From positions 1 to 64,000 of the IMG/VR virus record IMGVR_UViG_3300037504_000201: 64,000 nt of DNA; one strand, 5' to 3'. This stretch comes from a virus. Taxonomy: Duplodnaviria; Heunggongvirae; Uroviricota; Caudoviricetes. The position numbers and the translations under genes are program-made. Positions 47,144 to 62,698 of this stretch are shown piece after piece (positions within the stretch are counted from its first letter, which is position 1; every line of letters starts with the position of its first letter). The notes beneath the pieces were generated by a model. The model was not told where the DNA came from, ran no database searches, and worked only from the letters and a program-made list of their open reading frames with translations.

Positions 47144-47164
47144 AATATCCCCTTCGTATAGATA

Positions 47165-47233
47165 TCTGACTTTATCGATTCTCCTAAAACATTATTATTA
47201 TATTTTAAAAGAATCAATTATCTCAAATTGATT
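47165..47233. repeat. AT-rich palindromic element, copy 6
   Basis: CTGACTTTATCGATTCTCCTAAAAC, spacer, arm GAATCAATTATCTCAAATTGATT. TTGAGA-18-TATAAT on the minus strand points at 46523-47143. Confidence 0.75.
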
Positions 47234-47698
47234 TTACCGCCCCAGTACCTTGCGGATCACACCGACCACACCGTCAACGAACTTGTCGCGGAACATCTCC
47301 GCTGCCTCGTCAATGCGACGCCAGCCGCGCGCGCCGTGATAGTCAGCTTGATAGCCGCCGGGGCCGTGCACGTCTTGCGCATAGCTAACAGGGTTCTCGA
47401 CGGTCACCTCGGTCACGTCCGACAGGTAGGTTGACCAATGGTCACCCAACTGCTCGGACACAGACGTCTGCTCAAGCGTGCCGTCGGAGTAGAGATACAT
47501 CCCACCGGTGCCGCGCTTGTAAAATGACCCCCACGTGCCATACCTTGGCCGGTTAGCCTCAGACTCGGGCGGGTACTTGCCTACCCAATTCTCCATGGCC
47601 TTGCCTTGCTTGATAAGCATCGGCTGGGCTGCCCTGCGCAAGTCATCTACTAAGTTGGCGAACGTGGTTCGGACGGCACGGGTGTAGGCGCGGATCAT
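47234..47698 (-). CDS. hypothetical protein
   Basis: ATGA coupling. Confidence 0.45.
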   Translation of the reverse strand: MIRAYTRAVRTTFANLVDDLRRAAQPMLIKQGKAMENWVGKYPPESEANRPRYGTWGSFYKRGTGGMYLYSDGTLEQTSVSEQLGDHWSTYLSDVTEVTVENPVSYAQDVHGPGGYQADYHGARGWRRIDEAAEMFRDKFVDGVVGVIRKVLGR

Positions 47699-48213
47699 CT
47701 CAAAAGCTCCGGCATGTCCAATTGCTCATCCAACGCGTCGATGAACGTGTGCCACTCGGGCAAGCGATGGGCCTTGCGTTGGCCTCGGATGCGCTTAAGC
47801 GTCTTATAATTCGTCTTGATAATCCGGCGCTGAAGGAACGACTCGGGCAGCTCGCGCTTGACTTGCCGCCAGTCGCCGTCTGCTATCAACGTGTTAAGCC
47901 AGAACAGTGTGGACGGCACAATCTCGCCCTCAAAGTCATCTTGCGTCAAGGGGCGCCTGGTGATCGTATACATTGTGGATTCGCTCTGCTTGGACACGCC
48001 CACGCGGTAGGTGTCAGCTTGCTGCCACCAATAGCGAGGGGCCGTCACGTCAATCCACACCTCGATGAACTCAAGGAATTTGTTGTGCCCGCCGTCTTTG
48101 GGCGCCAGTCTCTCCGCAACTGCCGACATCTGATCAACCGGCTTATTGCGCGATAAGCTCAGGCCCAACAGCGCGAATTCGTAGCCGTATTCACCCAGCA
48201 CCTTGACAATCAT
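47695..48213 (-). CDS. hypothetical protein
   Basis: ATGA coupling. Confidence 0.45.
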   Translation of the reverse strand: MIVKVLGEYGYEFALLGLSLSRNKPVDQMSAVAERLAPKDGGHNKFLEFIEVWIDVTAPRYWWQQADTYRVGVSKQSESTMYTITRRPLTQDDFEGEIVPSTLFWLNTLIADGDWRQVKRELPESFLQRRIIKTNYKTLKRIRGQRKAHRLPEWHTFIDALDEQLDMPELLR

Positions 48214-49160
48214 TCCACCACCGCCTGGACCAGCTGCCCGCTGTAAAATTCCGTCGCGTCTGCAAACGCTAACACCGGATCGTCAGGCACCCGGTTGTTG
48301 AACACGCGCCGGGCGAGGGCGCGGACAATGCGCTGCTCGCCTTCCAATCTCAATACCCCATCGCCTAGCGAGAATGCCGCCACGTCGCGCGCCGCCCGCT
48401 CGTTGTGGTCAAAGACATAAAAGGTCAACGTCATCCGCTCGTCGCTGTCAACCTCTGCTTGCCCGGCTTGCAACATCGCGTTGAAAGCTTGATAATCGGC
48501 CTCAAGCGCGTTGCGATCCATCGCGGTGCCGTAACGGTCAACCATGCGGCGCTCGGCTACCTCGTCATCTCCGTTGAACCAACGAATGGCGCGCATGCTA
48601 ATGAGCCGCTCGGCGGCCTCACGCACAGCGATCTCGACTTCAGCACCGACGTCGCCATACTCAAGCGCTTCAACCCGCGCTATCATCATATCTCTGACAC
48701 GATGCGAACCGTAACCGCTGCCCATCAGGCACGTGTCGAGGCCCATATCGCGCTCGACCTCGGGAAGCGCCGTGTAAAGCGCGCTCGCCGGGTTGGTGAC
48801 GGGGGCCAGTGTCGCCCCTTGATAATCCACGCCCCACACCGCCCCCACTCCGTCCACAATCAAGCTGGACGGGGAGCGAACGGGGACGCCCAGTAAGTAG
48901 TCCAGCACCAGCAGCGCCTCGGCCCGCTCGTTGCGTGGCACATCGATGCCCAGCGACGGCTTGGCGCCGACGAACTCACGCAAGAATTTACCGTCCGCCA
49001 CATCGACGGTGACCGGAACAATAGGATTGCTTGGCAACAGCTTCTCGGACAGCACATAGGCGGCATAGTTGAGCGGGTCTTCCATCTCGACTAGAATGTT
49101 ATCATCGGTGTAGCATAGGTATTTATACATCTTCCACCTCGGCACTTCGCCGGTATACAA
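48210..49160 (-). CDS. hypothetical head-module protein
   Basis: 316-aa ORF. The alternative start at Met11 (49130) has better coupling. Confidence 0.4.
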   Translation of the reverse strand: MYTGEVPRWKMYKYLCYTDDNILVEMEDPLNYAAYVLSEKLLPSNPIVPVTVDVADGKFLREFVGAKPSLGIDVPRNERAEALLVLDYLLGVPVRSPSSLIVDGVGAVWGVDYQGATLAPVTNPASALYTALPEVERDMGLDTCLMGSGYGSHRVRDMMIARVEALEYGDVGAEVEIAVREAAERLISMRAIRWFNGDDEVAERRMVDRYGTAMDRNALEADYQAFNAMLQAGQAEVDSDERMTLTFYVFDHNERAARDVAAFSLGDGVLRLEGEQRIVRALARRVFNNRVPDDPVLAFADATEFYSGQLVQAVVE

Positions 49161-49770
49161 GCCGACACCGGCAATTGGTCAGACACTGCGTGCTCCCATC
49201 ACCGGGGAACGCGCCGCCATACGGGTTTAGTCGCATTGGACGCCACTCCATCGCCGCAAACTCTACGCAGTCCGGGCAGCTCTCGGCCTCGGGATCCAGC
49301 ACCCACTTCACCTCGTCAAATCGCGCCTCAATATGCGCGCGTTGCTTGCCACGCTCGTAGGCTTCGCGGGCCGAGTTGATGTACATCCGCGCGCGCGCTC
49401 TGATCTGCGCTGTGGACAATGCGCCGTCCGCTATCTGCTCGGCAAATCGATCAAGGAACCGGTATTGCTCGGTGAGCATCCCGCCGATTGAGCCCCAGTC
49501 CGCAGGCGTCATCTGGTCGCGCCCGCCACGCCCGAACAGATACTGTCGGATGTACTCGTCCTTGATCTCTTGGCGCATCGCGTCGCGCCAGTCTCCAGGC
49601 GAGATAAGCGGCGGGTCGCTGCCGGCCATCTCGGCAAGCGTGTCGGTGCGCGACGCGCTCACCTCAAGCGACGCGTCGACCAGCTCTATCGCGCGGGCAC
49701 GGGACATATAGCGACCGGTCTCCATGTCGCGGTAGCGCGCTGATCGGATGTCCCAAGCCCAGGTTGCCAT
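49123..49770 (-). CDS. minor head protein (MuF/SPP1 gp7-like, tentative)
   Basis: Position after the portal. C-terminal CPDC...C motif. TAATG coupling. Confidence 0.35.
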   Translation of the reverse strand: MATWAWDIRSARYRDMETGRYMSRARAIELVDASLEVSASRTDTLAEMAGSDPPLISPGDWRDAMRQEIKDEYIRQYLFGRGGRDQMTPADWGSIGGMLTEQYRFLDRFAEQIADGALSTAQIRARARMYINSAREAYERGKQRAHIEARFDEVKWVLDPEAESCPDCVEFAAMEWRPMRLNPYGGAFPGDGSTQCLTNCRCRLVYRRSAEVEDV

Positions 49771-49952
49771 TACTCTTCGCCTTCCTCCGCCTCGACCACG
49801 TAATACCACGGCGTCTGCTTGGCAATTTCGTGCGGCGTGTCGCTGGGGACGATGACGGAGGCGATAACGCCCTCTTCTAGCTCTTTACCTTGAACCTCGT
49901 AAAGCTTGCGGTCGCCGTGTTTGTCCGGGTCATAGTCGATGTATCTGGGCAT
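49770..49952 (-). CDS. small acidic protein
   Basis: TAATG coupling to the portal stop, with RBS GGAGG. Confidence 0.4.
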   Translation of the reverse strand: MPRYIDYDPDKHGDRKLYEVQGKELEEGVIASVIVPSDTPHEIAKQTPWYYVVEAEEGEE

Positions 49953-52396
49953 TAGTCACTGCCTCCAAATATTTCATCTAGGGAATCGACTTCTAAATAT
50001 TCGGCAAGAGCTTGTCGCTGTTCATTCGAACCATAATGATATACCCTAAAGGTATCGGCCTTAAATTCGAGATCTTTGGTTAGTGAGTACTCACGAAGGC
50101 CATACCTAGCAAGGTCGCCCTTCGTCACTCTATCCACAAACCCATACCTATAAGCATCCTTCATGTCCTTAAAACCATTAACCAATAAATCGTTCGCCCT
50201 TTGACCACGCTTACTCTCCAAGAACGCAGAGCGCATGGTTACATGGTGCCCAAGCTCGTGAGAGAAGATATACCTTGAAGACGATATAAAATCAGGATTT
50301 ATATGTATTGATTGCTCTTGCGGATCGTACACTCCTGCAGCATCATAATCGCCTACGTGGGAACGCCAAGGATTATCTGGCGAAAGTTGCGCGCGGATCT
50401 TTGTTGGCTCCGTCGTAATCCGCTTCAGCCCTTCCAAGTGTCGCGGCTGAATCTCATCTCGCACCATCATATCAACAACGACTTTGCGCGTCTTTTCATC
50501 AAGGCCCTCTACCAACTTGCGCCCAGGCCCAACCTCAAAGTATCGCGGATTGACACGTCCGCTTCCACGCATTGAACCCGGAGCACTCCCGCCGCGTTTC
50601 CCAGGGCGCCCAGCATGCCCCCAGTTGCCACTACCTGGGCCGCCTTTCACGTTCTCATCCCACGTCGGCGCGTTCATCAACTGCGCCCACTCGTCACTCA
50701 CCCGCGCAGCGCCCGCCACGGCCCGCTCGGCGTCGGTCTGCGTGATGGTCAACGTATCGTTGGCGAATAACGTGTCTCGGTCGGGCACAGGCATAAACTC
50801 GACGACCTCCTCCGGCTCCGACTCATTGTAGCGCGCCAAGAGCAGCGCCTCGGCGGTGGCGTCCTTGACCTCTGTGATAGGCAGATCGACCGGCGTCGCC
50901 GCAATCTCACGCAGGCCGGCAAACACCTCAAGCACGCCTTGGTCGCTCACGCCATCGGGTAGCGCAGTCAGCGCCGCTTCGGTCAGTGATTTTAGCCAGG
51001 CGGGGATGTCGTGGCACACGAACGGCGCCGACGACGGGTGCCGGCCAGACTGAGCGAAGCGCAACGCCTTGCGCTCCCACTTGCCCAGCTCGTCAAGCGC
51101 CTTGTTCTCTTCTTCTGCGGGCGGCTCTTCTTGCGTCTGTTCCTCGCCTTGCTGCCCCATCGATGCCAGCTCCGGTATCAATGGGATAAAGCGGGTGGGC
51201 AACGTGTCGCAGTACTCTGCCACCGGGCCGGCCTCGATAGGATCCAGGCCCTGCTTGGCCCGCGCCTCGTTGACCGTCATGTCCGGCGCGTATGTCGTAT
51301 AATCTTGACGGTCCTCATCACGTCGGGCGGGGCGAAAGTCCTCGTACTGACAAATGAATTGCTCGCCGTAGGTGGGCCGAATGAACTGCGTGGTGATGTC
51401 CCCGGCTAGAAGCTGCGCAATTGGGTAAACGTGCCACTCGGTCACCATGTCAAGGGACGCATACATCGAGGCGTAGGTGGTGTTCTGCGCCCCCAGCGCC
51501 TCCGACCAGCCCAGCACCTCCATAAACTCGCGGCGGTTGGAATCGCTCAACTGGACGATAGCCAGGTCGTCCAGGTTCATCTCCATCGCCTTGACGTCCA
51601 TATCGCCCGCGCGCATCACCAGCGCCGCCCGGTCCACCACCCGCAGCTCTTTGATAATCTCGTCGCGGATAGCAAAAAACTGCGAGCGCGTGACCGGCTT
51701 TTTGATGTTAAAGATGGTGGTGGGGGAGGCGTTCCTTGGCCCGAAAAAGTTCTCACGGAATCTCCGCTGGCCTAACTCAGTCTTGATGGTGCTCTCAAGC
51801 GCGCTTACCCCGCTCATCCCGTCCAATGGGTCGAGGATGTTGGGCATGCGACACCAAATGACTTGCGTGTGAGGAATCAGATAGGGCCGCCCGTCGCGCC
51901 CAGAGAACTCGTAGCCCAACACCGGCGTCTTGGTGTCGGGGCCTGGGATAGGCTGCACCGACATCGGCGGCAAGGGCCACAATGACTCCGGTTCAAGATT
52001 ATCATCCAGCCCTACAAAGATGAACGCGCTACCGCGAATCGGCAGACATAGCCCAATGAACCAGCGGAAGAACACGCCCGACATGAATGAGTTGGGGTCG
52101 TGCAAGAGAAGCTCGAACGGGTGATTCTCGACCGGCGTCGGCTTGTCCTCGGGCTTGGCACGCTCATAGATGCCGGGGATATAGCTGGAGAGAATCTTGG
52201 CGATGCCGTTGGCTGCTGTGTAGACGGGCGGGAGCTTGAGCGCCTTGCGCTGCAAGCTCTCGTGACTTGCGCCGGGCGCGGCACGTGATATGCCGCCGCC
52301 CATCGAGATAGGCAGATCGGGCACGGCGGGGTAAGGCTCACGTTCCCCAGGCCGTTCAATGCTCAGCTTTCCGACCCCCGGAATTCTGAATCTCAT
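49952..52396 (-). CDS. portal protein with C-terminal extension containing Gly-rich motif and HExxH zincin-like domain
   Basis: N-terminal 480 aa is portal-like. Then GGPGSGNWGHAGRPGKRGGS. Then a 230-aa domain with IFSHELGHHV. Confidence 0.65.
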   Translation of the reverse strand: MRFRIPGVGKLSIERPGEREPYPAVPDLPISMGGGISRAAPGASHESLQRKALKLPPVYTAANGIAKILSSYIPGIYERAKPEDKPTPVENHPFELLLHDPNSFMSGVFFRWFIGLCLPIRGSAFIFVGLDDNLEPESLWPLPPMSVQPIPGPDTKTPVLGYEFSGRDGRPYLIPHTQVIWCRMPNILDPLDGMSGVSALESTIKTELGQRRFRENFFGPRNASPTTIFNIKKPVTRSQFFAIRDEIIKELRVVDRAALVMRAGDMDVKAMEMNLDDLAIVQLSDSNRREFMEVLGWSEALGAQNTTYASMYASLDMVTEWHVYPIAQLLAGDITTQFIRPTYGEQFICQYEDFRPARRDEDRQDYTTYAPDMTVNEARAKQGLDPIEAGPVAEYCDTLPTRFIPLIPELASMGQQGEEQTQEEPPAEEENKALDELGKWERKALRFAQSGRHPSSAPFVCHDIPAWLKSLTEAALTALPDGVSDQGVLEVFAGLREIAATPVDLPITEVKDATAEALLLARYNESEPEEVVEFMPVPDRDTLFANDTLTITQTDAERAVAGAARVSDEWAQLMNAPTWDENVKGGPGSGNWGHAGRPGKRGGSAPGSMRGSGRVNPRYFEVGPGRKLVEGLDEKTRKVVVDMMVRDEIQPRHLEGLKRITTEPTKIRAQLSPDNPWRSHVGDYDAAGVYDPQEQSIHINPDFISSSRYIFSHELGHHVTMRSAFLESKRGQRANDLLVNGFKDMKDAYRYGFVDRVTKGDLARYGLREYSLTKDLEFKADTFRVYHYGSNEQRQALAEYLEVDSLDEIFGGSD

Positions 52397-52403: not shown

Positions 52404-52586
52404 CTACCTCTCAATTTTAAACCAGCCCTCAACCCACAACGTCGCCACGATAACTCCGAGCCAGAACACCGGCGCGCCAACCCACCACGCCCACCCGGCG
52501 CCGAATGCCAGCCCGGCGAACGGGCAAGCGACCAGCGCATAGCACGCAGCGCGGCGGACGAGCCAAGACAAGCTTATCTCTGGCAT
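52404..52586 (-). CDS. small two-TM membrane protein
   Basis: Internal Met with RBS GGTGAGAG. W-rich TM helices. Confidence 0.4.
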   Translation of the reverse strand: MPEISLSWLVRRAACYALVACPFAGLAFGAGWAWWVGAPVFWLGVIVATLWVEGWFKIER

Positions 52587-52694
52587 ATCGCTCTCACCAC
52601 GGCAAAGCCCACACCAACATTTAGTAGGACGAATGCCCAAAAGTCGAGGCGCTTCCAGAACTCACGCACGCGCATCACAATGTAACACCCATCG

Positions 52695-53570
52695 CTAATC
52701 TCTTTTAGCTTGATCGTTCGCATTAAACACCACGTATGCAAAGACGCTCTCGGAGAACGTCTGTCTAAAATATGCCGGCGGCATGCGCCGGACGGCGCCG
52801 TCGTAGGCGTCCACAATGATAAACTCTAGCTCGTCCACTTCGTCTACGCCCACTACCAACACCCACGCCCGTCCCCCTTGGTCTCCCGACACTTGCAGCC
52901 CGACCAGCCCGCCGGCCTCAACCAACCGACTAAGGCGGTTGACGGGCAAAGGGGACGCCATCGTCGATTGATAATCTATATCGATATTGGGATAGGCCCG
53001 GTTGACGGCGGGCCAGTTGATGTCGGGCCTAAACGCATCGACTTGCAATAGCGTCGCGTTGGCGTCGAGGGGAGAGACCATAAAGCTACCCAATCGGCTG
53101 GCGGCCATAGCGACGGTCGTAACGGCGCCGCCGTGCGTGGCGAACGTCTCTGGCCCACCGCCCACCGGCTCGTCGGCCCAGCGCGTGTCGGTCTGGGCGA
53201 ACAAGTACAGCTCTTCGTGCGGGTGAAACAAGTCAATGAGACGACGAACACGCCTAATCTGCTCGTCAGCACGCGCCATTTGCGCAGCCAAGTCGGCCTG
53301 GTGCTCAAGCAAGTGCTGCTCCAGCGCCTGCAAGTCTTGAATGCCCAAATGCACCATCCCTCTAATATCGCTGTCCTCAGTCATTCGCTTGCACACCTCG
53401 CACAGCCGCTGAATGTGGACTACCTTGAGATTGGCGAAGGCGAGACGGGGATTGTCGTGCCCCATCGCGCTCAGCCGTTCAAGCGCCTCTTCCTCCGGCA
53501 GTGCAATCAGTTCGTGGTACAGCACATCTTCACTCGTCGTCACGGCGCACCACCGAGAACTCAACGTCAC
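52695..53570 (-). CDS. hypothetical protein
   Basis: 291-aa ORF. Start is uncertain (alternative GTG at 53543). Confidence 0.4.
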   Translation of the reverse strand: MTLSSRWCAVTTSEDVLYHELIALPEEEALERLSAMGHDNPRLAFANLKVVHIQRLCEVCKRMTEDSDIRGMVHLGIQDLQALEQHLLEHQADLAAQMARADEQIRRVRRLIDLFHPHEELYLFAQTDTRWADEPVGGGPETFATHGGAVTTVAMAASRLGSFMVSPLDANATLLQVDAFRPDINWPAVNRAYPNIDIDYQSTMASPLPVNRLSRLVEAGGLVGLQVSGDQGGRAWVLVVGVDEVDELEFIIVDAYDGAVRRMPPAYFRQTFSESVFAYVVFNANDQAKRD

Positions 53571-53733
53571 CTTGCACCATCAACACGTCAATGCCCGGCA
53601 GCGCCAGGCGCAACTCTTCGTAAAAGGCAACGGCGTGCTCGTGCTTCATGTCGCGCGGGATGCGCACCATGAGACGGTCACCCGGCCCAATGTCCAGCTT
53701 GGCAATCTCGACGGTCACAGCATCGATCTTCAT
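53530..53733 (-). CDS. hypothetical small protein
   Basis: TAAATG junction. Confidence 0.4.
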   Translation of the reverse strand: MKIDAVTVEIAKLDIGPGDRLMVRIPRDMKHEHAVAFYEELRLALPGIDVLMVQGDVEFSVVRRDDE

Positions 53734-54300
53734 TTAGTCCTCGTCTGGGTGCTCTCTCATATAATGCGCAAAATCTGCACTCATCTCTCGATTGCGCCGC
53801 TCAAGATGCGCAATCTCTTTAACGTACCCATCGAGGTTGTCTTGCAGCCTCTCGTTAATCGCCTTATATCTTTCGCACTCTCGTTTCAATTCTTCAACGC
53901 GCTGCGACCATTCTTCGGCGGTGTAGAGACTGCGAACGGCTTTTACTTTCCCGTCCTTATCAAAGCAATAAACGAATCCCTCCGGCGCGTTCTCTGAGCA
54001 CACGGCATTTTTTACAAAGTGCAGCACTTCAGGCGCACACCATACCCGATCCGCAATGTGCTGCATTGCCGATAGCGCTTCGTGGACATTGACGAACGGC
54101 ATGAACTTTATTATGTACGTATACATATCGTAGGACCGCCAAGTCTTCGTCTTTTCTTTTTTTATCAACTTAAAGCACGGCCCAACACTATCGTCTGAGA
54201 CAATAGCGCTCATCGCCTCTTGCGTTGTTAGGATGGTCGCGCCTTTGTCGTCGTGGCAAATGACGGTAAAATCGTTGACTAGGTCATATCTTGGTGTCAT
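53734..54300 (-). CDS. hypothetical protein with C-terminal coiled coil (lower GC)
   Basis: RBS AGGTGG. Confidence 0.45.
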   Translation of the reverse strand: MTPRYDLVNDFTVICHDDKGATILTTQEAMSAIVSDDSVGPCFKLIKKEKTKTWRSYDMYTYIIKFMPFVNVHEALSAMQHIADRVWCAPEVLHFVKNAVCSENAPEGFVYCFDKDGKVKAVRSLYTAEEWSQRVEELKRECERYKAINERLQDNLDGYVKEIAHLERRNREMSADFAHYMREHPDED

Positions 54301-54354
54301 GGTCTATCTACCACCTAAACGGATTGAGATTAAATCTAGTATCCATATCAATGC

Positions 54355-54927
54355 TCATTCCACCCTCGCCGTCACAATGCCGCGCTGGCGCTGATACTTG
54401 CCATTCTTGTCGGCGTAGCTCCGGGCGCACTCGCTCGACGCGCGCTGGAACAGCACTTGCGCGATGCCCTCGCCGGCGTAAATCTTGGCCGGGAGCCGCG
54501 CGGTGTTGCTGATCTCAAGCGTCGCATAGCCTTCCCACTCTGGCTCAAAGGGCGTTACATTCACAATAATACCACAACGCGCATAGGTGCTCTTGCCCAA
54601 ACAGATCGTCAGTATATCGCGTGGTACTCTAAAATACTCGACGGTGCGGGCCAACACGAACGAGTTAGGCGGGATGATGCAATATGGTCCCTGGTGTCGC
54701 TCCAACAGCTCCGGGTTAAACGCCTTGGGATCGACGATGGAACCGCCGTTGTAGCTGGGCCTAAACACATCGAATTCATCCGCCACCCGGATGTCATAGC
54801 CATAGCTTGACAGTCCGTAGCTGATCACGCCGCCGCGTATCTGCTCCGGCACGAACGGCTCTATCATCGGCGGGTCAGCGTTGCATCGTCGCTTGATCTC
54901 GTGGTCGGGAAGTAAGCCGTTAGTCAT
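54355..54927 (-). CDS. dcd: dCTP deaminase
   Basis: [35 protein letters not shown] match the Dcd family. RBS GGGAGGA. Confidence 0.85.
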
Positions 54928-55232
54928 TTACTAGCATCCTCCCAGGCGTCCACCGCTTTTCTCGCTATCATGAACGTATCAATGCCCATGCCGAACAATA
55001 ACGACGTTTTTACGTCTGGCAAAAAGCTATAAATTCTCTCTCTCAGAAAATCGCCAGACGTTCCGCCGAACTGCCTTGGTAGACAAATGATCAGCTCGTC
55101 ACCAGGACTAATAAGCTCGCCAATTTCGGAGATGATAAACGCAGCCGCGTCCGCATGATCACTAAAAGAATGGCACGTTACAACAAACGCCATCCCGGAT
55201 TTTGTAGGTATCACATTGTACCCGTCACTCAT
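54924..55232 (-). CDS. hypothetical protein
   Basis: ATGA coupling with RBS GGAAGG. Confidence 0.4.
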
Positions 55233-55690
55233 CCAGGGTCCCATCCTTCCAGCGGCACCAGCCAGCTCGCCGGGTTGGTCAGCTTGACCAGCTCTATGCC
55301 GATCTCGTGTAGCAAGTCGCGCGGCCAGCTCTTGCGGTCCAGCTCGGCACGCGTGCGCGCCAGCTCGCCGAACGGGACGAGCAAGGCCACGCCTCGGTCG
55401 CGCGGGGCGTAGAACTCGAAGGCGGCCCACGTACTGGCGGTGGTGGCGTGACACGTCGCCAGTGCAGTCCACTGCTCATCGCTGAATGTGTCCGTAAAAT
55501 TGACGCTCGTCACCGGCTCCTTGCACGTCTTGCACTCACAAAAGAATCCTTTGCCGTTGACGAGACATCCCAATAGGTCGATTGGGTTTTTTAGCCCTCT
55601 ATAATCCGTCGGGCGATGCACCCAAGCAACCATCGGGGACGCCTGGAAGCAATTCTTCATCTCGGTCTCAAAACTGCTGTGGCGACTCAT
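55229..55690 (-). CDS. PD-(D/E)xK nuclease (Hjc/RecU-like resolvase candidate)
   Basis: Leaderless start. IDLLGCL...FFCECK fits the D...ExK motif. Confidence 0.4.
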   Translation of the reverse strand: MSRHSSFETEMKNCFQASPMVAWVHRPTDYRGLKNPIDLLGCLVNGKGFFCECKTCKEPVTSVNFTDTFSDEQWTALATCHATTASTWAAFEFYAPRDRGVALLVPFGELARTRAELDRKSWPRDLLHEIGIELVKLTNPASWLVPLEGWDPG

Positions 55691-55696
55691 ATTACA

Positions 55697-55726
55697 AGTA
55701 TACACCATACCGTGTATGGTTGTCAA
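55697..55726 (-). promoter_or_regulatory. leaderless promoter class C, copy 2
   Basis: TTGACA-ACCATACACGGTATGGTG-TATACT-TGTAAT-ATG. Confidence 0.7.
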
Positions 55727-55747
55727 CGGGCGGGAATGGTAAAAGTG

Positions 55748-55855
55748 TACACGGTTCCGTGTAACTTAGCCGACTTAGTTTTAGCTCTTAAAACATTATA
55801 TATATATTTTAAGGGAATCAATTATGTCAAATTGATTGCTCTTGAATGCACTAGG
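55748..55855. repeat. AT-rich palindromic element, copy 7 (hairpin-extension type)
   Basis: TACACGGTTCCGTGTA, CTTAGCCGACTTAGTTTTAGCTC, spacer, arm GAATCAATTATGTCAAATTGATT, extension TGAATGCACTAG. The minus-strand TTGACA-18-TATATATA is in sense. Confidence 0.75.
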
Positions 55856-55888
55856 CGAGTGAGCAAGTGTAAGTGTCGGGTCGGGGAA

Positions 55889-55918
55889 TAAAAAAAGCCC
55901 CGCCGGGGGTGGCGGGGT
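55889..55918 (-). terminator. rho-independent terminator
   Basis: On the minus RNA: CCCCGCC-ACCCCC-GGCGGGGC, then UUUUUUUAUU. Confidence 0.7.
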
Positions 55919-55937
55919 TGGGGTTGGTACGGCGTGG

Positions 55938-56408
55938 CTATTTGTCGATAAGCATCTCTTCCAGTTCGTCCCACATCTCGGACGCCAGTTCATCCCGGTA
56001 AAACCAGGCGCTTTCTTCCTCGATCTGCTCGTCCGTCAGCGCTGGGACGCGGATGATAACGCCGTTCGATTGGTAGCGGTTGCCGATCTGGGCGCTCGAC
56101 AGCACGCGATAGGCGCCGTCGTCGAACAGCTCGGCGGCGTAGTACTCGCCATTCGCCGCTGCTTGCGTGCTCTTGACGATAGTCGGCACAAAGTCAATGC
56201 TATCGATGAATGCCCTCAGCGCCCACTTGAGCGCGGCAAAGCGCTGTCCGCGAAGGTGGGATGCGTAGTGTCTCAGCGCGTCGTCGATGATTGCCACGCG
56301 GTCGCCGTGCTGCCCGGCATCGCGGTGGGTCAGCACGGCAAGCTCGTCGAATAAGTCAGCGCGGTTGTCTGCCGCGCTGTAAACGTTGGTGTATCCGTTG
56401 CTGGACAT
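55938..56408 (-). CDS. hypothetical protein
   Basis: TAATG coupling. Confidence 0.45.
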   Translation of the reverse strand: MSSNGYTNVYSAADNRADLFDELAVLTHRDAGQHGDRVAIIDDALRHYASHLRGQRFAALKWALRAFIDSIDFVPTIVKSTQAAANGEYYAAELFDDGAYRVLSSAQIGNRYQSNGVIIRVPALTDEQIEEESAWFYRDELASEMWDELEEMLIDK

Positions 56409-56695
56409 TAGAGCCACTTCTTCGTTGAGATGGCACCATCTGCGCTCTCGACAACGCTGACGCGGCGATTCACATCGGCCATGTATGGTCGACCGTGCTG
56501 GTCAACGTGGACCCAGCCGCGCCGCTTGACTTCAATGCCGTTTTTGTGCGCCCAATCGCGCATCCGGCGCTTGAAGCTCTCGACATCGGATTGAGTCGGA
56601 GCGATGACCTTTTCAAGGTTGACGCCACGGTCAACTTGCACGCCACTCAAGCGCGCATGGTATAAGCACTTTTGATTTTGATTACAAACACACAT
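56408..56695 (-). CDS. hypothetical Cys-rich protein
   Basis: RBS AAAAAGGAGATTGAG. N-terminus MCVCNQNQKC. Confidence 0.45.
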   Translation of the reverse strand: MCVCNQNQKCLYHARLSGVQVDRGVNLEKVIAPTQSDVESFKRRMRDWAHKNGIEVKRRGWVHVDQHGRPYMADVNRRVSVVESADGAISTKKWL

Positions 56696-56807
56696 CTCAA
56701 TCTCCTTTTTCATTCTAGCGATCCCCCATTACCGCATCGTTTTCAGCGGCACCCGCACGGCGCGGGCTGTAGGGCCAACCCTGCTTGTTAGGCGGGGGTT
56801 TTAGATA
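56696..56807 (-). ncRNA. conserved structured RNA leader, copy A
   Basis: 90-nt repeat with multi-hairpin potential. Compensatory changes relative to copy B. Confidence 0.4.
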
Positions 56808-57017
56808 TTAGTCCAAGTGAGTCGCTTCATTCGCCCATGTGGCGACGTGGGCCGAGTACACCTGCCCGCATCGCGTGCAACGCGCGGCATAGCTACGCTG
56901 CTGCGGGACGAATCCAGCCTTGCGAAAGCCGCGTCCGTGCTCCCAGTACCCGTCTTCGACGGGCGCGCCACATTCGCATTTGCCATTTACCAACTCATCG
57001 GTTGATTTGACCTTCAT
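56808..57017 (-). CDS. zinc-ribbon protein (CxC...CxxC)
   Basis: RBS AAAAGGAGAGATTGAA. GKCECG and CTRCG motifs. Confidence 0.45.
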   Translation of the reverse strand: MKVKSTDELVNGKCECGAPVEDGYWEHGRGFRKAGFVPQQRSYAARCTRCGQVYSAHVATWANEATHLD

Positions 57018-57136
57018 TTCAATCTCTCCTTTTCTCATCAAGGCGATCCCCCATTACCGCATCGACTTTTCAGCGGCACCCGCACGGCGCGGGCTGTGGG
57101 GCCAACCCCGCTGGCTAGGCGGGGGTTTTGGAATTT
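57018..57136 (-). ncRNA. conserved structured RNA leader, copy B
   Basis: Near-identical to copy A, with a covarying GGGG-UUGG-CCCC versus AGGG-UUGG-CCCU stem. Confidence 0.4.
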
Positions 57137-57607
57137 CTAGGCGGGCCAATCCACAACCCACCAAGAGCCATCAATGAAGTATGCGCTAAACCAGCGGTCG
57201 CGGTCTCCGCCATCCTCGACATCGCGGGTCATATCGAGGCACTCGTGCACCCAGTAGGCATTGGGCACATCGTCCTCGCTCGCCAGCTCGCGCCAGGCTT
57301 GGACGTCTTGGGCGAAGCCGAGAGGAACATAGACTCGGCTCAGTGAGTGGGCAATTAAGTCACCCTGGCGTTGACCGCACCCAGCTATGACGGGCTCATA
57401 CTGCTCACCCGCAACAAGACGGCCTATCTCGATATTCACCATCTTGAAGCCGTCGTTTTCCCCGACGGCCAGAGCGATGGTGTGGGGTGCGCCCTTACTC
57501 AGCGACGCGAAGGAGATCATCTCCTCGCCATCATTGAATAGCATGTCCGCACAAACCCACCGCCACGGCAAATAACCTAATCTCATTGATAACTTTTCCA
57601 CGTTCAT
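57137..57607 (-). CDS. hypothetical protein
   Basis: RBS AAAGGAAG, 4 nt before the ATG. Confidence 0.45.
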   Translation of the reverse strand: MNVEKLSMRLGYLPWRWVCADMLFNDGEEMISFASLSKGAPHTIALAVGENDGFKMVNIEIGRLVAGEQYEPVIAGCGQRQGDLIAHSLSRVYVPLGFAQDVQAWRELASEDDVPNAYWVHECLDMTRDVEDGGDRDRWFSAYFIDGSWWVVDWPA

Positions 57608-57719
57608 CTTACTTCCTTTCTGCCGGTTTCTCGCGCACTCCGGCAAACGCTATCGGCCTTGCCACATCAGCTCCGGGCGGCCATCCCCGACGGACGCGGG
57701 CGCGTTGCCCGCGTTTCGG

Positions 57720-57947
57720 CTAGCGCTTTTTCAATTCGCGCCAAACGTCATCCTCAATCTTGGCATGAATGAAGCGCTTTTCGCCCTCATCGTACTCAAT
57801 CCCCTGCTCGCGACACCTCTTTTCCCAGCTATTCAAAACACCTTCGACGTATAGGCCAATGGACCAATCGAGAAATTCAGCAATGCTGAATGGGCTATCT
57901 TCCATCGCGCTATCGGCCACGCTGGCTAGCTTGTCAATGCTAGTCAT
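57720..57947 (-). CDS. hypothetical protein
   Basis: Internal Met overlapping the upstream stop. Confidence 0.35.
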   Translation of the reverse strand: MTSIDKLASVADSAMEDSPFSIAEFLDWSIGLYVEGVLNSWEKRCREQGIEYDEGEKRFIHAKIEDDVWRELKKR

Positions 57948-58131
57948 AATCCAGCCGTCCGCCGTGGACGGCCCAACGCTCGGCGTCTTCGACCTCGACG
58001 CGCAGCTTCTTGCCGCGCTTCCAGCCGATCTGCTCGGATGCATCGGCGCCGACGCGCTTGAACTTGTCCGACGCTCCGGCAGCGCTGATGCTACCGCTTC
58101 CATCGCCCTTGATCTTGATTACTGCCTTCAT
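57940..58131 (-). CDS. hypothetical protein
   Basis: RBS TAGGAGGAACAG. Confidence 0.45.
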   Translation of the reverse strand: MKAVIKIKGDGSGSISAAGASDKFKRVGADASEQIGWKRGKKLRVEVEDAERWAVHGGRLDYD

Positions 58132-58140
58132 CTGTTCCTC

Positions 58141-58380
58141 CTATCGATTTCCCGCGAACAAGGAGCGCGCCCACTCCTCGTCCGTCTGCGGCTTCTCATT
58201 CTCTCGTTCTGCGCGCGCTTGGCGCTGAATATCACGCGCGCGCTCTAACTCTTCCTCGCTCAGCCGGCACCACTCGTGGCGCCAAGCGCTGGACAACCCG
58301 TGCTGCTGAGCTTGCCCGGTCTCGATTTGCTCGCGGGTGACCGGCTTGCCGCACTTGCGGCACTTGCGCTCGTATATCAT
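58141..58380 (-). CDS. zinc-ribbon protein
   Basis: TAGATG junction with RBS AAGGAG. CRKCG...C motifs. Confidence 0.45.
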   Translation of the reverse strand: MIYERKCRKCGKPVTREQIETGQAQQHGLSSAWRHEWCRLSEEELERARDIQRQARAERENEKPQTDEEWARSLFAGNR

Positions 58381-58839
58381 CTACTCAATCTCCTTAATCG
58401 CGCTCAAGTCCCAGACCACCAGGTTGTAGCTCTGTTGCTGCCACATCCCCTTGTAGCCCAGGTCCTTGAGCCAGTTGGTCGTCATTTGCCAGATCGCGTC
58501 GTCCTCGTGCGCGAACTGGCTAACGAATTCGTCGGCCTTTGCGGTGGGCTGCCCATCGGCTACCCAGCCGTTGGCTTCCAGCCACTCGCCAAAGCCGGCG
58601 ATCTCGGTGGGATTGACGGCGATGTCGTCCATTTCTACCGTGACCTGCACTACGGGCTGAATCCCGTAGTGCCCGAAGATTTGGCCTTCCCAGTATTCGG
58701 GGTTCTGGCTCAGATAGACGCCTTGCCCCATCTGGGTGCCGCCCTTGCTTCCGGCTTGGCTTGCGCTGAAGCCATTGGCGCGGATGCTCTTGGCTGATTC
58801 TTCGGTCGTTATGTGGTAGAATTTCTTGGTCGCCATTTG
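58381..58839 (-). CDS. ADP-ribosyltransferase-like (H-Y-E type) protein, tentative
   Basis: RBS AGGAGA. FYHITTEE...GVYLSQNPEYWEG...VEMDD is consistent with H/Y/E ART or Tpt1-like folds. Confidence 0.3.
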   Translation of the reverse strand, partial: QMATKKFYHITTEESAKSIRANGFSASQAGSKGGTQMGQGVYLSQNPEYWEGQIFGHYGIQPVVQVTVEMDDIAVNPTEIAGFGEWLEANGWVADGQPTAKADEFVSQFAHEDDAIWQMTTNWLKDLGYKGMWQQQSYNLVVWDLSAIKEIE

Positions 58840-58875: not shown

Positions 58876-58904
58876 AGTATACCACACATTCTAGAATATG
58901 TCAA
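58876..58904 (-). promoter_or_regulatory. sigma70-type promoter class A, copy 3
   Basis: TTGACA-TATTCTAGAATGTGTGG-TATACT. Same ATTCTAGAAT palindrome and upstream CAATTG as the copies at 2156 and 3025. Confidence 0.65.
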
Positions 58905-58945: not shown

Positions 58946-59036
58946 AATTCAATTTGACATAATTGATCGGCTTAAAACATATATTATATATTTTAAAAGA
59001 ATCAATTATGTCAAATTGATTGTGCGTGAATGCACT
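58946..59036. repeat. AT-rich palindromic element, copy 8 (complete two-arm copy)
   Basis: Left arm ATTCAATTTGACATAATTGATCGG, spacer, right arm GAATCAATTATGTCAAATTGATT plus GTGCGTGAATGCACTAG. Minus-strand TTGACA-18-TATATAAT. Confidence 0.8.
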
Positions 59037-59056
59037 AGATTGCGATGCAATAGGAA

Positions 59057-60664
59057 TTATACCCAACCCATAAGGACGGCGTTGTCGCCTTCGAGGGCGA
59101 AGGATAGCGCCAGGGCGTCGGCTTTATCTGGGGATCGTCCGAGGGAATCGCGCATCTTGTCTTTAGGCGTGATGCGTCGCACGCCACCTTTGTTCTCGTA
59201 CTGGATCGCCGTCAGCTCTTGCGCCAGTTGGTCGTCTGGCGGCAGCATCGCCGTAGGGTCGTCGTGAAGCCAGCGGCGCACCTGGTCGAATAGATAGGCG
59301 CGCAGGTCATAGTAGGCGGTGACGCCATCCTCGTTGGGTGGTGACTTCCAGCTTACCTTGACGCCCAGCACCTGCGTCTCGGCGAACGGCACGCGCTCGG
59401 AGCGGGCGAGGCCGGCAATCTCTTGTATCCTCTCAATCTCTTCGCGCATCCTTGGCGCCACACCGGCACCAACTCCCACGGCGTCCACGGCCACGGCGGC
59501 GGGGTGCACGTTGGCCAGGCGCATCGTCGCCTCTTTCGCCGTCTCGTTGGGGTCGATGCCGTTCCACAGCTCAAGCGGCGCCACCCACCCACCGTAGCGC
59601 TTGCACAGACAGTTAAAGTCGGCGCCAAACTCGGCGATGTCCAGCCCGACCAGCGGCGCGATGCCAGGCGGTTGGTCGCCCACCAGCTCTTGCCTCAGCT
59701 TCCATCGCCCCATCGCGCGCGTTACGTCGCTTTCGGGGATGAGCTGATTGAGCGACTGGCCGGGGAAGCGGGCCAGAACGATGTAGGAGAGTTGCGGGTC
59801 TTCGACTTTGCGCCACCCGGCGCCGACCTGGTCTGCTAAAAAGTCGGGCACCTTAAAATATTCAAGCTCGGCCTCGTCGAACTTTTCTCCGTCAACAACC
59901 GGGCGCGACCACTTTTCTATGCGCCGGATCGTTCGTCGTCTCGTCACGGCCCCGCCGGGGATCACTGTCTCGCCGGTGATGACGTTAGGATGGGAGAAGG
60001 CGTCGAGGGTGACGACGTGGGCGCCTTGGGTGATGAGCTTGTAGGCCGGTGAATTCTTGGACCTCGGGTTGAACATCACAAGCAGCCGGGCGAACCCGCC
60101 GCTCATACACGACTCAATGCCGCGATACACCTCTTCGGGCACCGCATCCCCTTCGTCAATGATAAAGAGAAGGAAGGGAGCGTGCTTGCCGGCAAACTTG
60201 GCTTCACGTTCTGCGCTGGATCCGCTCGTCGGGATCGCCACACCGTCAAACCACCAGTTAGGCCCGGCAGCGATGTGCATGGTGTGCACGTCGCAATCAT
60301 TGAACAGCTCCGGATGGTCCATAACGCGCTGGTCCACCTCGCCCCACAGCAGGCGCTGGAGGTTGTCAAGTGGCGGGGCAGCAGCGCTGACGATCTTGGA
60401 GTTGGTGAGGCAGCGGAAGAACCACACGCCCACGTCGGCGGCGATAAACGTCTTGCCGACGGCATTAGCCGACTTGACGACGGTGACGCGGTGGTCGACG
60501 ACGGACTGCAGTACCTCGGCTTGCCCGTCGGTGACGTGGTGGCCCAGTACGCGCCGGGAGAAGCCGATAGGGTCGAAGGCCCAGGCGGACCATTCGTTGG
60601 GGGAGAGGCGTTTTAGCCCGGCGACGGCCTCGCGCTGAAGAAGGTAGCGGTCATTCCTCGCCAT
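59057..60664 (-). CDS. terminase large subunit
   Basis: Walker A KSANAVGKT. About 535 aa with a nuclease-like C-terminus. Overlaps the small subunit gene. Confidence 0.75.
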   Translation of the reverse strand: MARNDRYLLQREAVAGLKRLSPNEWSAWAFDPIGFSRRVLGHHVTDGQAEVLQSVVDHRVTVVKSANAVGKTFIAADVGVWFFRCLTNSKIVSAAAPPLDNLQRLLWGEVDQRVMDHPELFNDCDVHTMHIAAGPNWWFDGVAIPTSGSSAEREAKFAGKHAPFLLFIIDEGDAVPEEVYRGIESCMSGGFARLLVMFNPRSKNSPAYKLITQGAHVVTLDAFSHPNVITGETVIPGGAVTRRRTIRRIEKWSRPVVDGEKFDEAELEYFKVPDFLADQVGAGWRKVEDPQLSYIVLARFPGQSLNQLIPESDVTRAMGRWKLRQELVGDQPPGIAPLVGLDIAEFGADFNCLCKRYGGWVAPLELWNGIDPNETAKEATMRLANVHPAAVAVDAVGVGAGVAPRMREEIERIQEIAGLARSERVPFAETQVLGVKVSWKSPPNEDGVTAYYDLRAYLFDQVRRWLHDDPTAMLPPDDQLAQELTAIQYENKGGVRRITPKDKMRDSLGRSPDKADALALSFALEGDNAVLMGWV

Positions 60665-61145
60665 CAATTCGCTGCTCGACCAGCGCGTCGATTAGCGCGT
60701 CCAGCTTCTCCGCGCGCTCGGTGTCGGTTAGGCCGGCGTGGACGGATTCAATGGGGCCGCCGTCCTTGCCGGTCAGCTCGGTGCGCGTCGGCGCGTCCAG
60801 TCCCATGAGGTCAGCCCGGCGCTTCATCAACTTGAGCACCCGGTCAATCGCGCTGTAATCGCCTTGCGCCGCCCGCGTCCAGATGCCAAGCAGCATCCGG
60901 TCGATGCGCTCAAGTTCTAGCGTGCGAACGGCGCCCGCATCGTCTGCGATTTGGTCACGCAACTTTTCAAGCTCGCGCTTGACGTCTTTGTGCGCGTAGC
61001 GTTCACCCCACCCACCGGGTAGATTGTCAATGCCAAACTCTCGCACCGCAGCGGCGGCGATGTCGCGATATGTGGCACCGGCACGGCGCATTTTTAGCAC
61101 GTATTCACGTCGTTCTGCCGTGTCTAACAAATCGCTTGTACCCAT
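60651..61145 (-). CDS. terminase small subunit (putative)
   Basis: N-terminal HTH (RRAGATYRDIAAAA). Position immediately upstream of the large subunit. Confidence 0.55.
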   Translation of the reverse strand: MGTSDLLDTAERREYVLKMRRAGATYRDIAAAAVREFGIDNLPGGWGERYAHKDVKRELEKLRDQIADDAGAVRTLELERIDRMLLGIWTRAAQGDYSAIDRVLKLMKRRADLMGLDAPTRTELTGKDGGPIESVHAGLTDTERAEKLDALIDALVEQRIDGEE

Positions 61146-61159: not shown

Positions 61160-61894
61160 TTACTCCAACAACTCTGGTTCAAGCCCCATATCGGCCAAGC
61201 GTTGGAGCGCCACCGCCACATATTTCGGCTCTATCTCGATTCCTCTGCATTGCCGGCCTAGTCGCTCGCAAGCCACGGCGGTTGTGCCGGAGCCAAGGAA
61301 GGGGTCGAAGACCACATCACTGGAGTCGCTGCCGTGACGAAGCGCATTCTCGCACAATTCGACCGGCTTCATGGTTGGGTGCTCCCGCGACGCCGAAGGC
61401 TTGTCGTACTCCCACACAGTCGTCTGCTTGCGGTCGAGCGGCGCATGATGGTCTGCGCCGGGCTTCCATCCATAAAACAGTACCTCGTGCCTGTAATGGT
61501 AATCCGAATGCCCAAGCACCATCGTGTTTTTTACCCATACGATTGTCTGTCGCCACACCCCAATGCTCTTTAGTACTGTTGCGAAATCGTAGAATTGCGG
61601 CCCCGCCGGGGCCGCAATGTACCAGCACGCCCCATCGCGGCTCACATCGAAGGCCATGCATAGCGACTCGGACAGCAGCCCCAGAAGATCGTCCGCGCCG
61701 TCGTTCTGGATGGTAAGCGCGTCATCGGTCTTGCCGACGTAATCCACTCCATACGGCGGGTCAGTCACCACGCAATCCGCCTTCTCCCCGTCCATCACTA
61801 AATCAACAACGTCGGGATCGGTACAATCACCACAGACAAGTCTATGGCGGTACTTGATCTCTGGCTCAAATTCGTGACCGCATTGGCATTTCAT
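61160..61894 (-). CDS. DNA methyltransferase (N6-adenine/N4-cytosine, beta class) with N-terminal zinc ribbon
   Basis: DPPYG (motif IV) precedes FDPFLGSGTT (motif I). Starts 2 nt after the ParB-like stop. Confidence 0.8.
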   Translation of the reverse strand: MKCQCGHEFEPEIKYRHRLVCGDCTDPDVVDLVMDGEKADCVVTDPPYGVDYVGKTDDALTIQNDGADDLLGLLSESLCMAFDVSRDGACWYIAAPAGPQFYDFATVLKSIGVWRQTIVWVKNTMVLGHSDYHYRHEVLFYGWKPGADHHAPLDRKQTTVWEYDKPSASREHPTMKPVELCENALRHGSDSSDVVFDPFLGSGTTAVACERLGRQCRGIEIEPKYVAVALQRLADMGLEPELLE

Positions 61895-61896
61895 AG

Positions 61897-62529
61897 CTAA
61901 TCCAGCTTGTGCAATCTGCCGCACTTGGGGCAAATTGTATAACGCCCAATCCCCCACAACTGCCCAGATTCAACCCCCCACTTTTTGCGCAGCTCTTCCG
62001 CCTTGTCGATCTGCGCGCCGGGGTCCTCGGGCGGCTCTTGCGATAGCGCCAACAACGCCTCGATATCGCCCACGTCAAACGCCACCGGCGCCTCGTCCAT
62101 CTGCGCAAGCTCGGCAAGCTGCTGCTCAAAGTCGGCTTCCCACATTCGCATATGGTCAGTGAGATCAAAGTCGCCGCCGGATAGCGTCAATGCGTTGTGG
62201 TCCACTCCGTACGACTTGGCAGCCGCCTCGCTGGCAGCGTCAACGCCGAACGTGACGGGCACAAGCCAGCCGCCGTTGTCGTCAACAGCAATCCCGCGCG
62301 GCGGGTCGTCGCCAGCATTGCGCATCGCGTCCAACGCGATAAAGCGCCCGTTGCCTTCAACAATCCCGCCGTCGCCCTTGTTCAGCTGCGGCTCGAATTT
62401 AGGCGAGTCCTTGAATCCGTGGCGTTTGAAGGACTTAATCAGCGCCTCAATGTCATGGCGCTTCTTGTTATCGTCCCAAAGCAGCGCGAGGTTCAATGGC
62501 ACGTATTCGATGGTCAGTTTATCACTCAT
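61897..62529 (-). CDS. ParB-like nuclease domain protein
   Basis: Leaderless start. GNGRFIALDA and surrounding region are ParB/Srx-like. Paired with the methyltransferase. Confidence 0.5.
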   Translation of the reverse strand: MSDKLTIEYVPLNLALLWDDNKKRHDIEALIKSFKRHGFKDSPKFEPQLNKGDGGIVEGNGRFIALDAMRNAGDDPPRGIAVDDNGGWLVPVTFGVDAASEAAAKSYGVDHNALTLSGGDFDLTDHMRMWEADFEQQLAELAQMDEAPVAFDVGDIEALLALSQEPPEDPGAQIDKAEELRKKWGVESGQLWGIGRYTICPKCGRLHKLD

Positions 62530-62535: not shown

Positions 62536-62565
62536 AGTATACACTATCCCGTGTACGCTTGTCAA
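62536..62565 (-). promoter_or_regulatory. leaderless promoter class C, copy 3
   Basis: TTGACA-AGCGTACACGGGATAGTG-TATACT-TGAGGT-ATG. Confidence 0.7.
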
Positions 62566-62578: not shown

Positions 62579-62652
62579 AAATCAATTTGACTTAATTGAT
62601 TGGCTTAAAACATATAATATATATTTTAAAGGAATCAATTAAGTCAAATTGA
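62579..62652. repeat. AT-rich palindromic element, copy 9 (two-arm)
   Basis: Arms AATCAATTTGACTTAATTGATT and GAATCAATTAAGTCAAATTGAAT. TTGACT-18-TATATA on both strands. Confidence 0.8.
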
Positions 62653-62668
62653 ATTCTACCGATTGGTA

Positions 62669-62698
62669 TAAAAAAAGCCCCGCCGGGGGGGCGGGGCC
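62669..62698 (-). terminator. rho-independent terminator
   Basis: On the minus RNA: GGCCCCGCC-CCCC-GGCGGGGC, then UUUUUUUAUACC. Confidence 0.7.

Follow-up and report, generated by a model that had tools for sequence, protein, structure and literature searches.

In Mu-like Pseudomonas phages, anti-CRISPR loci lie within the head-gene block as strongly promoted clusters of small orphan genes, set among packaging or head genes and with operator-like repeats at the promoter, and the predicted layout of the island described below is similar. Accessory regions of phages (morons and hotspots) may comprise several transcription units (bioRxiv 10.1101/2024.10.15.618418), and in T4-type phages the elements called PeSLs, which are repeated composite cassettes of terminator and promoter, mediate insertions and deletions in variable regions (PMC4122927). 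The region described here is an island of 15 small genes between the genes for the large terminase subunit (TerL) and the portal protein, in a stretch of 64,000 nt (hereafter the window, meaning the whole stretch analysed) that represents positions 1 to 64,000 of the IMG/VR virus record IMGVR_UViG_3300037504_000201, assigned to the Caudoviricetes. The phage is uncultured; among its genes are one for a tape measure and one for a major head protein of the HK97 type. Its island is an unusually large example of a known phenomenon, the phage accessory hotspot. It is probably a lineage-specific, variable accessory region of the moron type in a novel tailed phage, made up of two separately promoted units (modules A and B) and not of one insertion.

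Variability of the terminase-portal junction

From the stop codon of TerL to the start codon of the portal gene there are 6,660 bp, filled by 15 small open reading frames (ORFs) on the minus strand, none of which is a recognisable virion gene. To place this in context, about 190 related loci were gathered from metagenomes, IMG/VR and GTDB genomes with a TerL profile; for the recovery of loci from IMG/VR a TerL alignment worked, and single-protein queries with TerL or the portal found nothing useful. Because many TerL relatives are followed by other portal families, an integrase or another gene, the gap between the two genes was calculated only for the 29 non-redundant loci in which the next large ORF clusters with this portal. 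Here the median gap is 73 nt, the maximum is 1,123 nt, and 20 of the 29 loci have 130 nt or less; at a locus from an Azonexus metagenome-assembled genome (L003), the portal gene begins 48 nt after TerL. In the nearest relative (L004, TerL 54–55% identical), some ten small ORFs occupy a gap of ∼2,960 nt; they include proteins with CxxC motifs and an ORF of 208 aa with an HxH motif like that of M23 peptidases (recognised from the translation alone), and no homologue of the present island's proteins was found among them. The same holds more widely, as the filled gaps of L004, L086, L092, L060, L089 and L129 differ in cargo from the island, and non-adjacent relatives carry between 0.25 and 3 kb.

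Across the ∼190 related loci, just one island protein, i12 (67 aa), has homologues, leaving 14 of the 15 without any. In L086, L092 and L006, i12 is found directly upstream of the portal gene. Two of these loci (L086, 3507–4037; L092, 2739–3269) share a conserved 176-aa ORF that accompanies an i12-like ORF of 68 aa in the gap; this pair is another filling of the hotspot, and a recurrent one. A near-identity DNA search (megablast) of INPHARED with the region 49–61 kb gave no match, so that no isolate could be used for synteny; the best TerL match in that collection is 39% identical. Two of the island proteins, i01 and i13, are near-orphans even among 5.8 billion proteins. Since the flanking genes of relatives are mostly adjacent, and the gaps that are filled differ in cargo, the TerL-portal junction is a lineage-specific variable hotspot, and the island is its largest known filling. 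An earlier note on this DNA (the original prediction) had proposed that about 20 non-structural genes separate terminase from portal at a hotspot for accessory genes, to be checked by synteny with relatives. The separation and the hotspot have held up, gene order in the relatives not being that of a conserved core, and the number of genes comes down to 15.

One exception to this lack of conservation is a fragment of 86% nucleotide identity (L205), which retains i13, i14 and the portal gene, so that the portal-proximal end is stable over short distances. It weighs against a variable island, as does codon usage, which in most island ORFs is typical of the phage; taken with the phage-wide regulatory motifs, this indicates that a large part of the island was not imported recently. 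The contrary explanation, that the island is an ancestral conserved core that always lay between TerL and portal and was lost by relatives in which the genes are adjacent, builds on the same points, together with the promoter, operator and terminator motifs that the island has in common with the rest of the genome and the presence of i12 in relatives at 49% TerL identity. However, it would have to accommodate both the short gaps in most of the 29 relatives, with unrelated cargo in the others, and the lack of homologues of nearly all island proteins, and is judged quite improbable. A lineage-specific variable region is therefore the preferred reading.

An interrupted junction could also stem from a chimeric assembly, or from the integration of a foreign element (for example a transposon, a homing-endonuclease cassette or a satellite). 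In keeping with this, module A is flanked by direct repeats, and three ORFs (i03b, i09 and i11) have a low GC content, as the original prediction had noted, lying 2.3–2.9 standard deviations below the genome mean of 0.58 (standard deviation 0.036). However, both borders recur in independent assemblies from other runs or samples: L002 (Logan SRR12689834, 100% identical) covers ParB through i02, and L205 (JGI 3300060338) covers i13, i14 and the portal gene, so the island is not a chimera. Pfam, PHROG and NCBIfam revealed no integrase, transposase or HNH family among the island ORFs, and the flanking repeats, rather than being the ends of a particular element, belong to a motif with 12 occurrences across the phage. 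Such an origin is extremely improbable, and a variable region belonging to the phage lineage itself is again favoured.

The region of the window from about 20 to 64 kb carries minus-strand genes, as judged by GC skew and the longest ORFs. Along that strand the order is ParB-like protein, N6/N4 DNA methyltransferase, TerS-like protein, TerL, the 15 small ORFs and portal (Table 1). The Walker A (GKT) and Walker B (DE) motifs of TerL are invariant in an alignment of 30 homologues. The role of the TerS-like protein is inferred from its position, because the PHROG label of phrog_645 is 'Rnase E'. The count of 15 ORFs was reached after revision of start codons by ribosome-binding sites and stop-start overlaps, and they are named i01 to i14 plus dcd, with i03 divided into i03a and i03b; a single 127-aa ORF at 57720–58103 was rejected, as this stretch is better read as two ORFs (there is a separate AGGAGG ribosome-binding site and an ATGA stop-start overlap). 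Most island genes are translationally coupled, neighbours lying −14 to +9 nt apart. Wider intervals occur in front of i11 (54 nt) and at four spacers of 108–247 nt, where the RNA and promoter elements lie.

Table 1. Features of the island and its surroundings, ordered along the minus strand (positions refer to the window).
Feature	Position	Strand	Evidence or remark
ParB-like protein	61897-62529	-	profile match
N6/N4 DNA methyltransferase	61160-61957	-	PF01555, E 8e-27
TerS-like small terminase candidate	60651-61145	-	phrog_645, E 3e-25; directly upstream of TerL, overlaps TerL start
TerL, upstream island border	59057-60667	-	phrog_2, E 1.8e-24; 1,169 homologues
Left 68-nt direct-repeat copy	58971-59038	.	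repeat search
Left boundary, AT-rich 71-nt palindrome	58949-59019	.	two inverted TCAATTTGACATAATTGAT copies 52 nt apart, perfect arms
Putative promoter P_A	58876-58904	-	TTGACA-17-TATACT, TG before -10 hexamer; 11/12 sigma-70 consensus positions
i01, 151 aa, stand-alone ADP-ribosyltransferase-fold protein	58381-58836	-	H8 / Y41 / N137 triad
i02, 79 aa, possible zinc ribbon	58141-58380	-	CxxC...HxxC in translation; no family match
i03a, 63 aa	57940-58131	-	AGGAGG ribosome-binding site; no family match
i03b, 75 aa, GC 0.50	57720-57947	-	start overlaps i03a stop
Type II hammerhead ribozyme	57651-57721	-	RF02276, 41 bits vs gathering 37, E 6e-5 for whole window, full model 1-66, three stems
i04, 156 aa, acidic	57137-57607	-	no matches in libraries tried
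Leader copy 1, ∼100 nt, GC-rich, multi-hairpin	57031-57132	-	upstream of i05; repeat search, alignment
i05, 69 aa, possible zinc ribbon	56808-57017	-	CxC...CxxC
Leader copy 2	56706-56805	-	upstream of i06; repeat search, alignment
i06, 95 aa, basic	56408-56695	-	weak Lsr2-type DNA-binding motif match: phrog_1223, E 1.4e-4; PF23359, E 0.0065, below cut-off
i07, 156 aa, acidic, last module A gene	55938-56408	-	TAATG stop-start overlap with i06
Intrinsic terminator, module A end	55888-55917	-	CCCCGCC-ACCCCC-GGCGGGG then T7
Right boundary element	55749-55854	.	68-nt repeat copy 55787-55854, 19-mer 55817-55835, palindrome ACACGGTTCCGTGT 55749-55762
Putative promoter P_B	55697-55726	-	TTGACA-N4-TACACGGNATNGTG-TATACT; 11/12 consensus positions
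i08, 153 aa, PD-(D/E)xK Hjc-like nuclease candidate	55229-55690	-	phrog_843 'Holliday junction resolvase', E 2e-6; E10, D37, E52-x-K54
i09, 102 aa, GC 0.48	54924-55232	-	ATGA overlap couples to i08
dCTP deaminase (dcd)	54355-54927	-	PF22769, E 1.6e-36; phrog_1663, E 2.8e-62
i11, 188 aa, GC 0.48	53734-54300	-	no family match
i12, 67 aa	53530-53733	-	distant-relative match by tblastn, 40% identity, E 4e-5
i13, 282-291 aa, acidic	52695-53570	-	one relative found, 89% identity
i14, 60 aa, hydrophobic	52404-52586	-	ends 7 nt before portal ATG; i14 + portal junction conserved in L205
Portal, 814 aa, downstream island border	49952-52396	-	PF04860, E 9e-29, residues 57-382; phrog_2662, phrog_12
19-mer sites in window	1695-1765, 8330-8348, 10151-10169, 19486-19504, 30361-30379, 47213-47231, 55817-55835, 58949-59019, 62582-62652		

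The portal protein ends in a 250-residue extension (residues ∼560–814, window 49952–50700) that follows a GGPGSGNWGHAGRPGKRGGS linker and carries a HELGHH metallopeptidase-like motif; it had no match in a search of PDB sequences, and in the relative L003 a Mu F domain is fused to the portal instead. The portal gene is also set apart from that of the major head protein (41838–43265, phrog_10), by ∼6.7 kb (43281–49952, minus strand) with about nine ORFs, one of which (626 aa) has a weak match to the RNA-ligase family. The whole head module is expanded, beyond the TerL-portal junction. A further side observation concerns L004, where a GC-rich array of ∼450 nt (1539–1982) lies upstream of a small-terminase-like gene and shows a 5-nt periodicity (GCAAAGGCACGGC) with repeat spacings of 31, 36 and 41 nt. 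It has no counterpart in the window.

Gene and RNA content of the two modules

Module A (∼3.2 kb, from about 59.04 to 55.89 kb) is bracketed by 68-nt direct repeats that are 87% identical, and the palindrome at its left boundary gives a predicted RNA fold of −32 kcal/mol (z −9.8). The module would be transcribed from P_A, a near-consensus sigma-70 promoter that has an AGGAGA ribosome-binding site and then the ATG of i01 downstream of it, and closed by a strong intrinsic terminator, a near-identical copy of which occurs at 62668–62697. Its cargo comprises a protein with an ADP-ribosyltransferase (ART) fold, a candidate effector, and small proteins with cysteine motifs or a DNA-binding-like character. 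Module B runs from 55.73 to 52.40 kb; only 7 nt separate its last gene from the portal ATG, and it lacks a convincing terminator. It would use a second type of promoter, shared with the ParB-methyltransferase-terminase unit and with a unit at 46.5 kb, and its mRNA is probably leaderless, because the ATG of i08 begins 7 nt after the −10 hexamer. It encodes a candidate Hjc-like nuclease, a dCTP deaminase, which would supply dUTP and so dTTP for replication, and orphans, with transcription likely to read on into the portal gene.

The first gene of module A, i01, encodes a candidate host-takeover or anti-defence effector. It has the ART fold, and its distant, long relatives match the curated family models sought (PF00644 or PF18760), although i01 itself has no match in Pfam, PHROG or NCBIfam. 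H8 and Y41, corresponding to the NAD-binding His and Tyr, are invariant in the 13 members of its family. With the ART-PolyVal and PARP-like domains of phage polyvalent and MuF-fused proteins it has in common the fold, the conserved His and Tyr, a phage origin and a location near head-morphogenesis genes, and in size it is similar to AcrIF11, a small phage ART. Unlike the ART-PolyVal and PARP-like domains, it is a stand-alone protein of 151 aa that falls below Pfam thresholds, and its family departs from them at the position of the catalytic Glu (see below).

For i04, i07, i09, i11 and i13 there was no significant match in any library tried (Pfam, PHROG, NCBIfam, PDB and PADLOC among them); i13, in particular, gave no family, PDB or phage match, and for the orphan proteins as a group the NCBIfam and PDB sequence searches returned nothing significant. 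The better characterised gene products agree with much of what had been proposed from the sequence. The Cys motifs of the suggested zinc-ribbon proteins (i02 and i05) are present, the dCTP deaminase is genuine, as it scores well above the curated cut-off of the TIGR02274 equivalog model (152.9 bits versus 92.8, residues 6–188; PDB 4dhk, E 2.5e-71), and the PD-(D/E)xK nuclease is plausible from the family match of i08 and its E..D..ExK motif, the spacing of which resembles that of archaeal Hjc. For i08 there was no match in Pfam, NCBIfam or PDB, and a single-sequence AlphaFold2 (AF2) model was unusable (pLDDT 36.8). Small membrane proteins had been expected in the plural, of which i14 stands (Kyte-Doolittle value of 1.73 in a 19-residue window) and is the only ORF that is clearly membrane-like. 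Two terminators reduce to a single canonical one on the minus strand, at the end of module A.

Across the whole window, the hammerhead in module A is the sole Rfam family to exceed its gathering score. It begins on the stop codon of i03b, and cleavage is predicted after GUC, between 57693 and 57692, 85 nt upstream of the ATG of i04; the polycistronic RNA of module A would then probably be cut between i03b and i04. In its core, GAAA and GUC are present, and the segment CUGAUGU carries U, not A, at position 9 (consensus CUGANGA). The loop of stem I (UGGCC) is able to pair with a 3' GGCCG, which would form a possible pseudoknot. Hammerheads are known from prophage transcripts, where they flank single genes or short gene blocks, and the natural core variants of phage hammerheads include slow as well as inactive ones (Perreault et al. 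2011, PMC3088659). The present one is like those described in that study in being of type II, in lying in the intergenic spacer of a phage operon, in its possible loop-tail pseudoknot and in the predicted cutting of a polycistronic RNA. It differs in its A9-to-U core, and in occurring as a single copy and not as an array. No hammerhead was found in related loci (Rfam scan of 13 loci).

Further along module A, i05 and i06 are each preceded by one copy of a duplicated leader with several predicted hairpins. The two copies are 85–92% identical and show one compensatory difference (GGGG-UUGG-CCCC versus AGGG-UUGG-CCCU); their fold energy is no better than that of shuffled sequences (z about −0.5; −0.45 for copy 1). 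An Rfam scan of 7.3 kb found nothing in the leaders at an E-value of 1 or better, and a scan of 456 nt gave sub-threshold matches to Chlorobi-1 alone (13.8 bits versus a gathering score of 50). Far below threshold as this score is, the conserved Chlorobi-1 loop recurs exactly in one hairpin of the leader (UAAUGGGGGA). ARAGORN detected no tRNA or tmRNA in the leaders, and a scan of IMG/VR for the exact leader pattern gave 0 matches.

The dCTP deaminase and DNA modification

The original prediction had also placed dcd next to a ParB-like protein and DNA methyltransferase pair, and had read this as a phage that re-tools its nucleotide pool and DNA modification against restriction. The adjacency does not hold, and the reading drawn from it is not supported. 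The gene pair is real (the N6/N4 methyltransferase and the ParB-like domain protein occupy 61160–62529) and so is dcd, but they are 6.2 kb apart, with TerS, TerL and module A between them, and they belong to different predicted transcription units. The two ORFs of the pair overlap by 61 nt in different frames and match phrog_498 at positions 35–200 and 200–423. As these are consecutive parts of one profile, the ParB-like protein and the methyltransferase are a single fused protein in other phages, the gene for which is here split or frameshifted.

A coordinated system, in which dcd and the ParB-like/methyltransferase pair together alter the nucleotide pool and combine modified or non-canonical bases with methylation to evade restriction, is very unlikely. 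The shared promoter type of the two units suggests co-regulation, and the orphan methyltransferases of phages are commonly taken to serve in anti-restriction. However, dcd alone makes dUTP only, and as a gene of nucleotide supply it is common among phages (380 INPHARED records). The search for hypermodification genes covered the 1–20 kb early region with Pfam and ten proteins of 20–49 kb with PHROGs, in a window that holds 64 of the 77.75 kb of the contig. In the early region, and within the sensitivity of Pfam, there was neither a hydroxymethylase for dUMP or dCMP nor a homologue of thymidylate synthase, and no glycosyl- or aminoacyl-transferase or further gene for hypermodification; in the island, no ORF matched a hypermodification partner for dcd in Pfam or PHROG. 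PADLOC gave no significant match among 10 island proteins, the two weak ones having E-values of 0.0017 and 0.0035. On the parsimonious view, the dUTP made by dcd goes into the synthesis of dTTP, and protection against restriction is a separate task of the methyltransferase.

What Pfam did find in the early region is a helicase, a DUF5131 protein, an RNA-ligase-family protein, a HAD/PNK-type phosphatase and an SPFH protein; it found no integrase there, this being the sole region scanned for one. The DUF5131 protein (E 2e-101), the RNA-ligase-family protein (PF09414) and the HAD/PNK-3'-phosphatase-like protein lie on the plus strand at 10208–12384 and 16055–16924. Together these could be an RNA-repair set, of the kind that phages use against anticodon nucleases.

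Repeated elements and comparison with known systems

The elements at the module boundaries recur throughout the phage. A 19-nt near-palindrome, TCAATTTGACATAATTGAT, has 12 intergenic copies in the window (0.01 expected); at three places two copies form an inverted pair, 52 nt apart and with an AT-rich palindromic core between them. In appearance it resembles an operator pair used throughout the phage, a hairpin of the RNase III type or a cassette akin to PeSLs; a scan of IMG/VR for the exact 19-mer gave 8 single matches in unrelated contigs. The P_B-type promoter, with its conserved palindromic spacer, occurs three times in the window (46487–46516, 55697–55726 and 62536–62565, all on the minus strand; 0 expected), and the last of these precedes the ParB-like gene. 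In the two copies inspected, those of i08 and the ParB-like gene, an ATGAGT start lies 7 nt after the −10 hexamer, which suggests leaderless mRNAs. Two copies of the strong terminator (0 expected) and four copies of the palindrome ACACGGNNCCGTGT are also present in the window. The order terminator, palindrome, promoter, ATGAGT is identical at 62.7–62.5 kb and 55.9–55.7 kb. By these features the boundary elements are phage-wide repeats that resemble the PeSL cassettes of T4, and cargo would most likely be gained and lost by recombination between the terminator/palindrome/promoter composites, as in T4 PeSLs.

Several observations tell against parts of this scheme. No indel breakpoint was observed at a repeat, since the search for close relatives yielded no complete genome, and the recombination step is conjecture throughout. 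Promoter-like matches number 8 versus 5.3 in shuffled sequences, and terminator-like matches 12 versus 10.7, so neither is enriched as a class. The A9-to-U change may weaken or abolish cleavage by the hammerhead. In the i01 family the catalytic Glu is absent, and the position before strand 138–141 is N137 here and N, Q, T or S across the family; because of this, ART activity of i01 is uncertain. The placement of N137 presumes an alignment of motifs with NEYIVYD of PARP1, made without superposition.

A more far-reaching proposal is that PeSL-like shuffling operates in this non-T4 phage, with the repeated elements acting both as a regulatory switchboard and as recombination joints, and with a cargo that would include two novel functional classes: a family of stand-alone ART-fold effectors with an H-Y-N/Q signature, active in anti-defence like AcrIF11, and a leader of ∼75 nt and four helices serving, next to the hammerhead, as a cis-regulator or ribozyme. 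As a whole we consider this unlikely; were the repeats indeed recombination joints, modular shuffling of the PeSL type would reach beyond the T4-like phages. The more modest reading, a variable accessory region of two units, leaves a locus of compact, testable parts: an orphan ART-fold family, a variant hammerhead core, a duplicated leader RNA and a repeated operator/promoter element.

Compared with T4-type PeSLs (PMC2839356, PMC4122927), the elements are alike in combining a short terminator or stem-loop with a sigma-70-type promoter, in being repeated genome-wide and in bracketing variable genes. They differ in sequence, which is unrelated, this phage not being T4-like, and in taking the form of a long AT-rich palindrome built from a pair of 19-mers, which resembles a pair of operators or a site for RNase III as closely as it does a promoter. 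No recognisable defence system was found among the 10 island proteins run through PADLOC, and, in contrast to the HK97/lambda morons and the P2 hotspots old/tin and Z/fun, module B is not insulated from the downstream portal gene. With those morons and hotspots the island has in common a variable cargo of mostly unknown function between core genes, several predicted transcription units, a content that differs among relatives and, for module A, a predicted promoter and terminator of its own. It differs from them in its site, the usually uninterrupted junction of TerL and portal. This junction, which usually serves as a fixed landmark in phage annotation, can thus act as a cargo site in some lineages.

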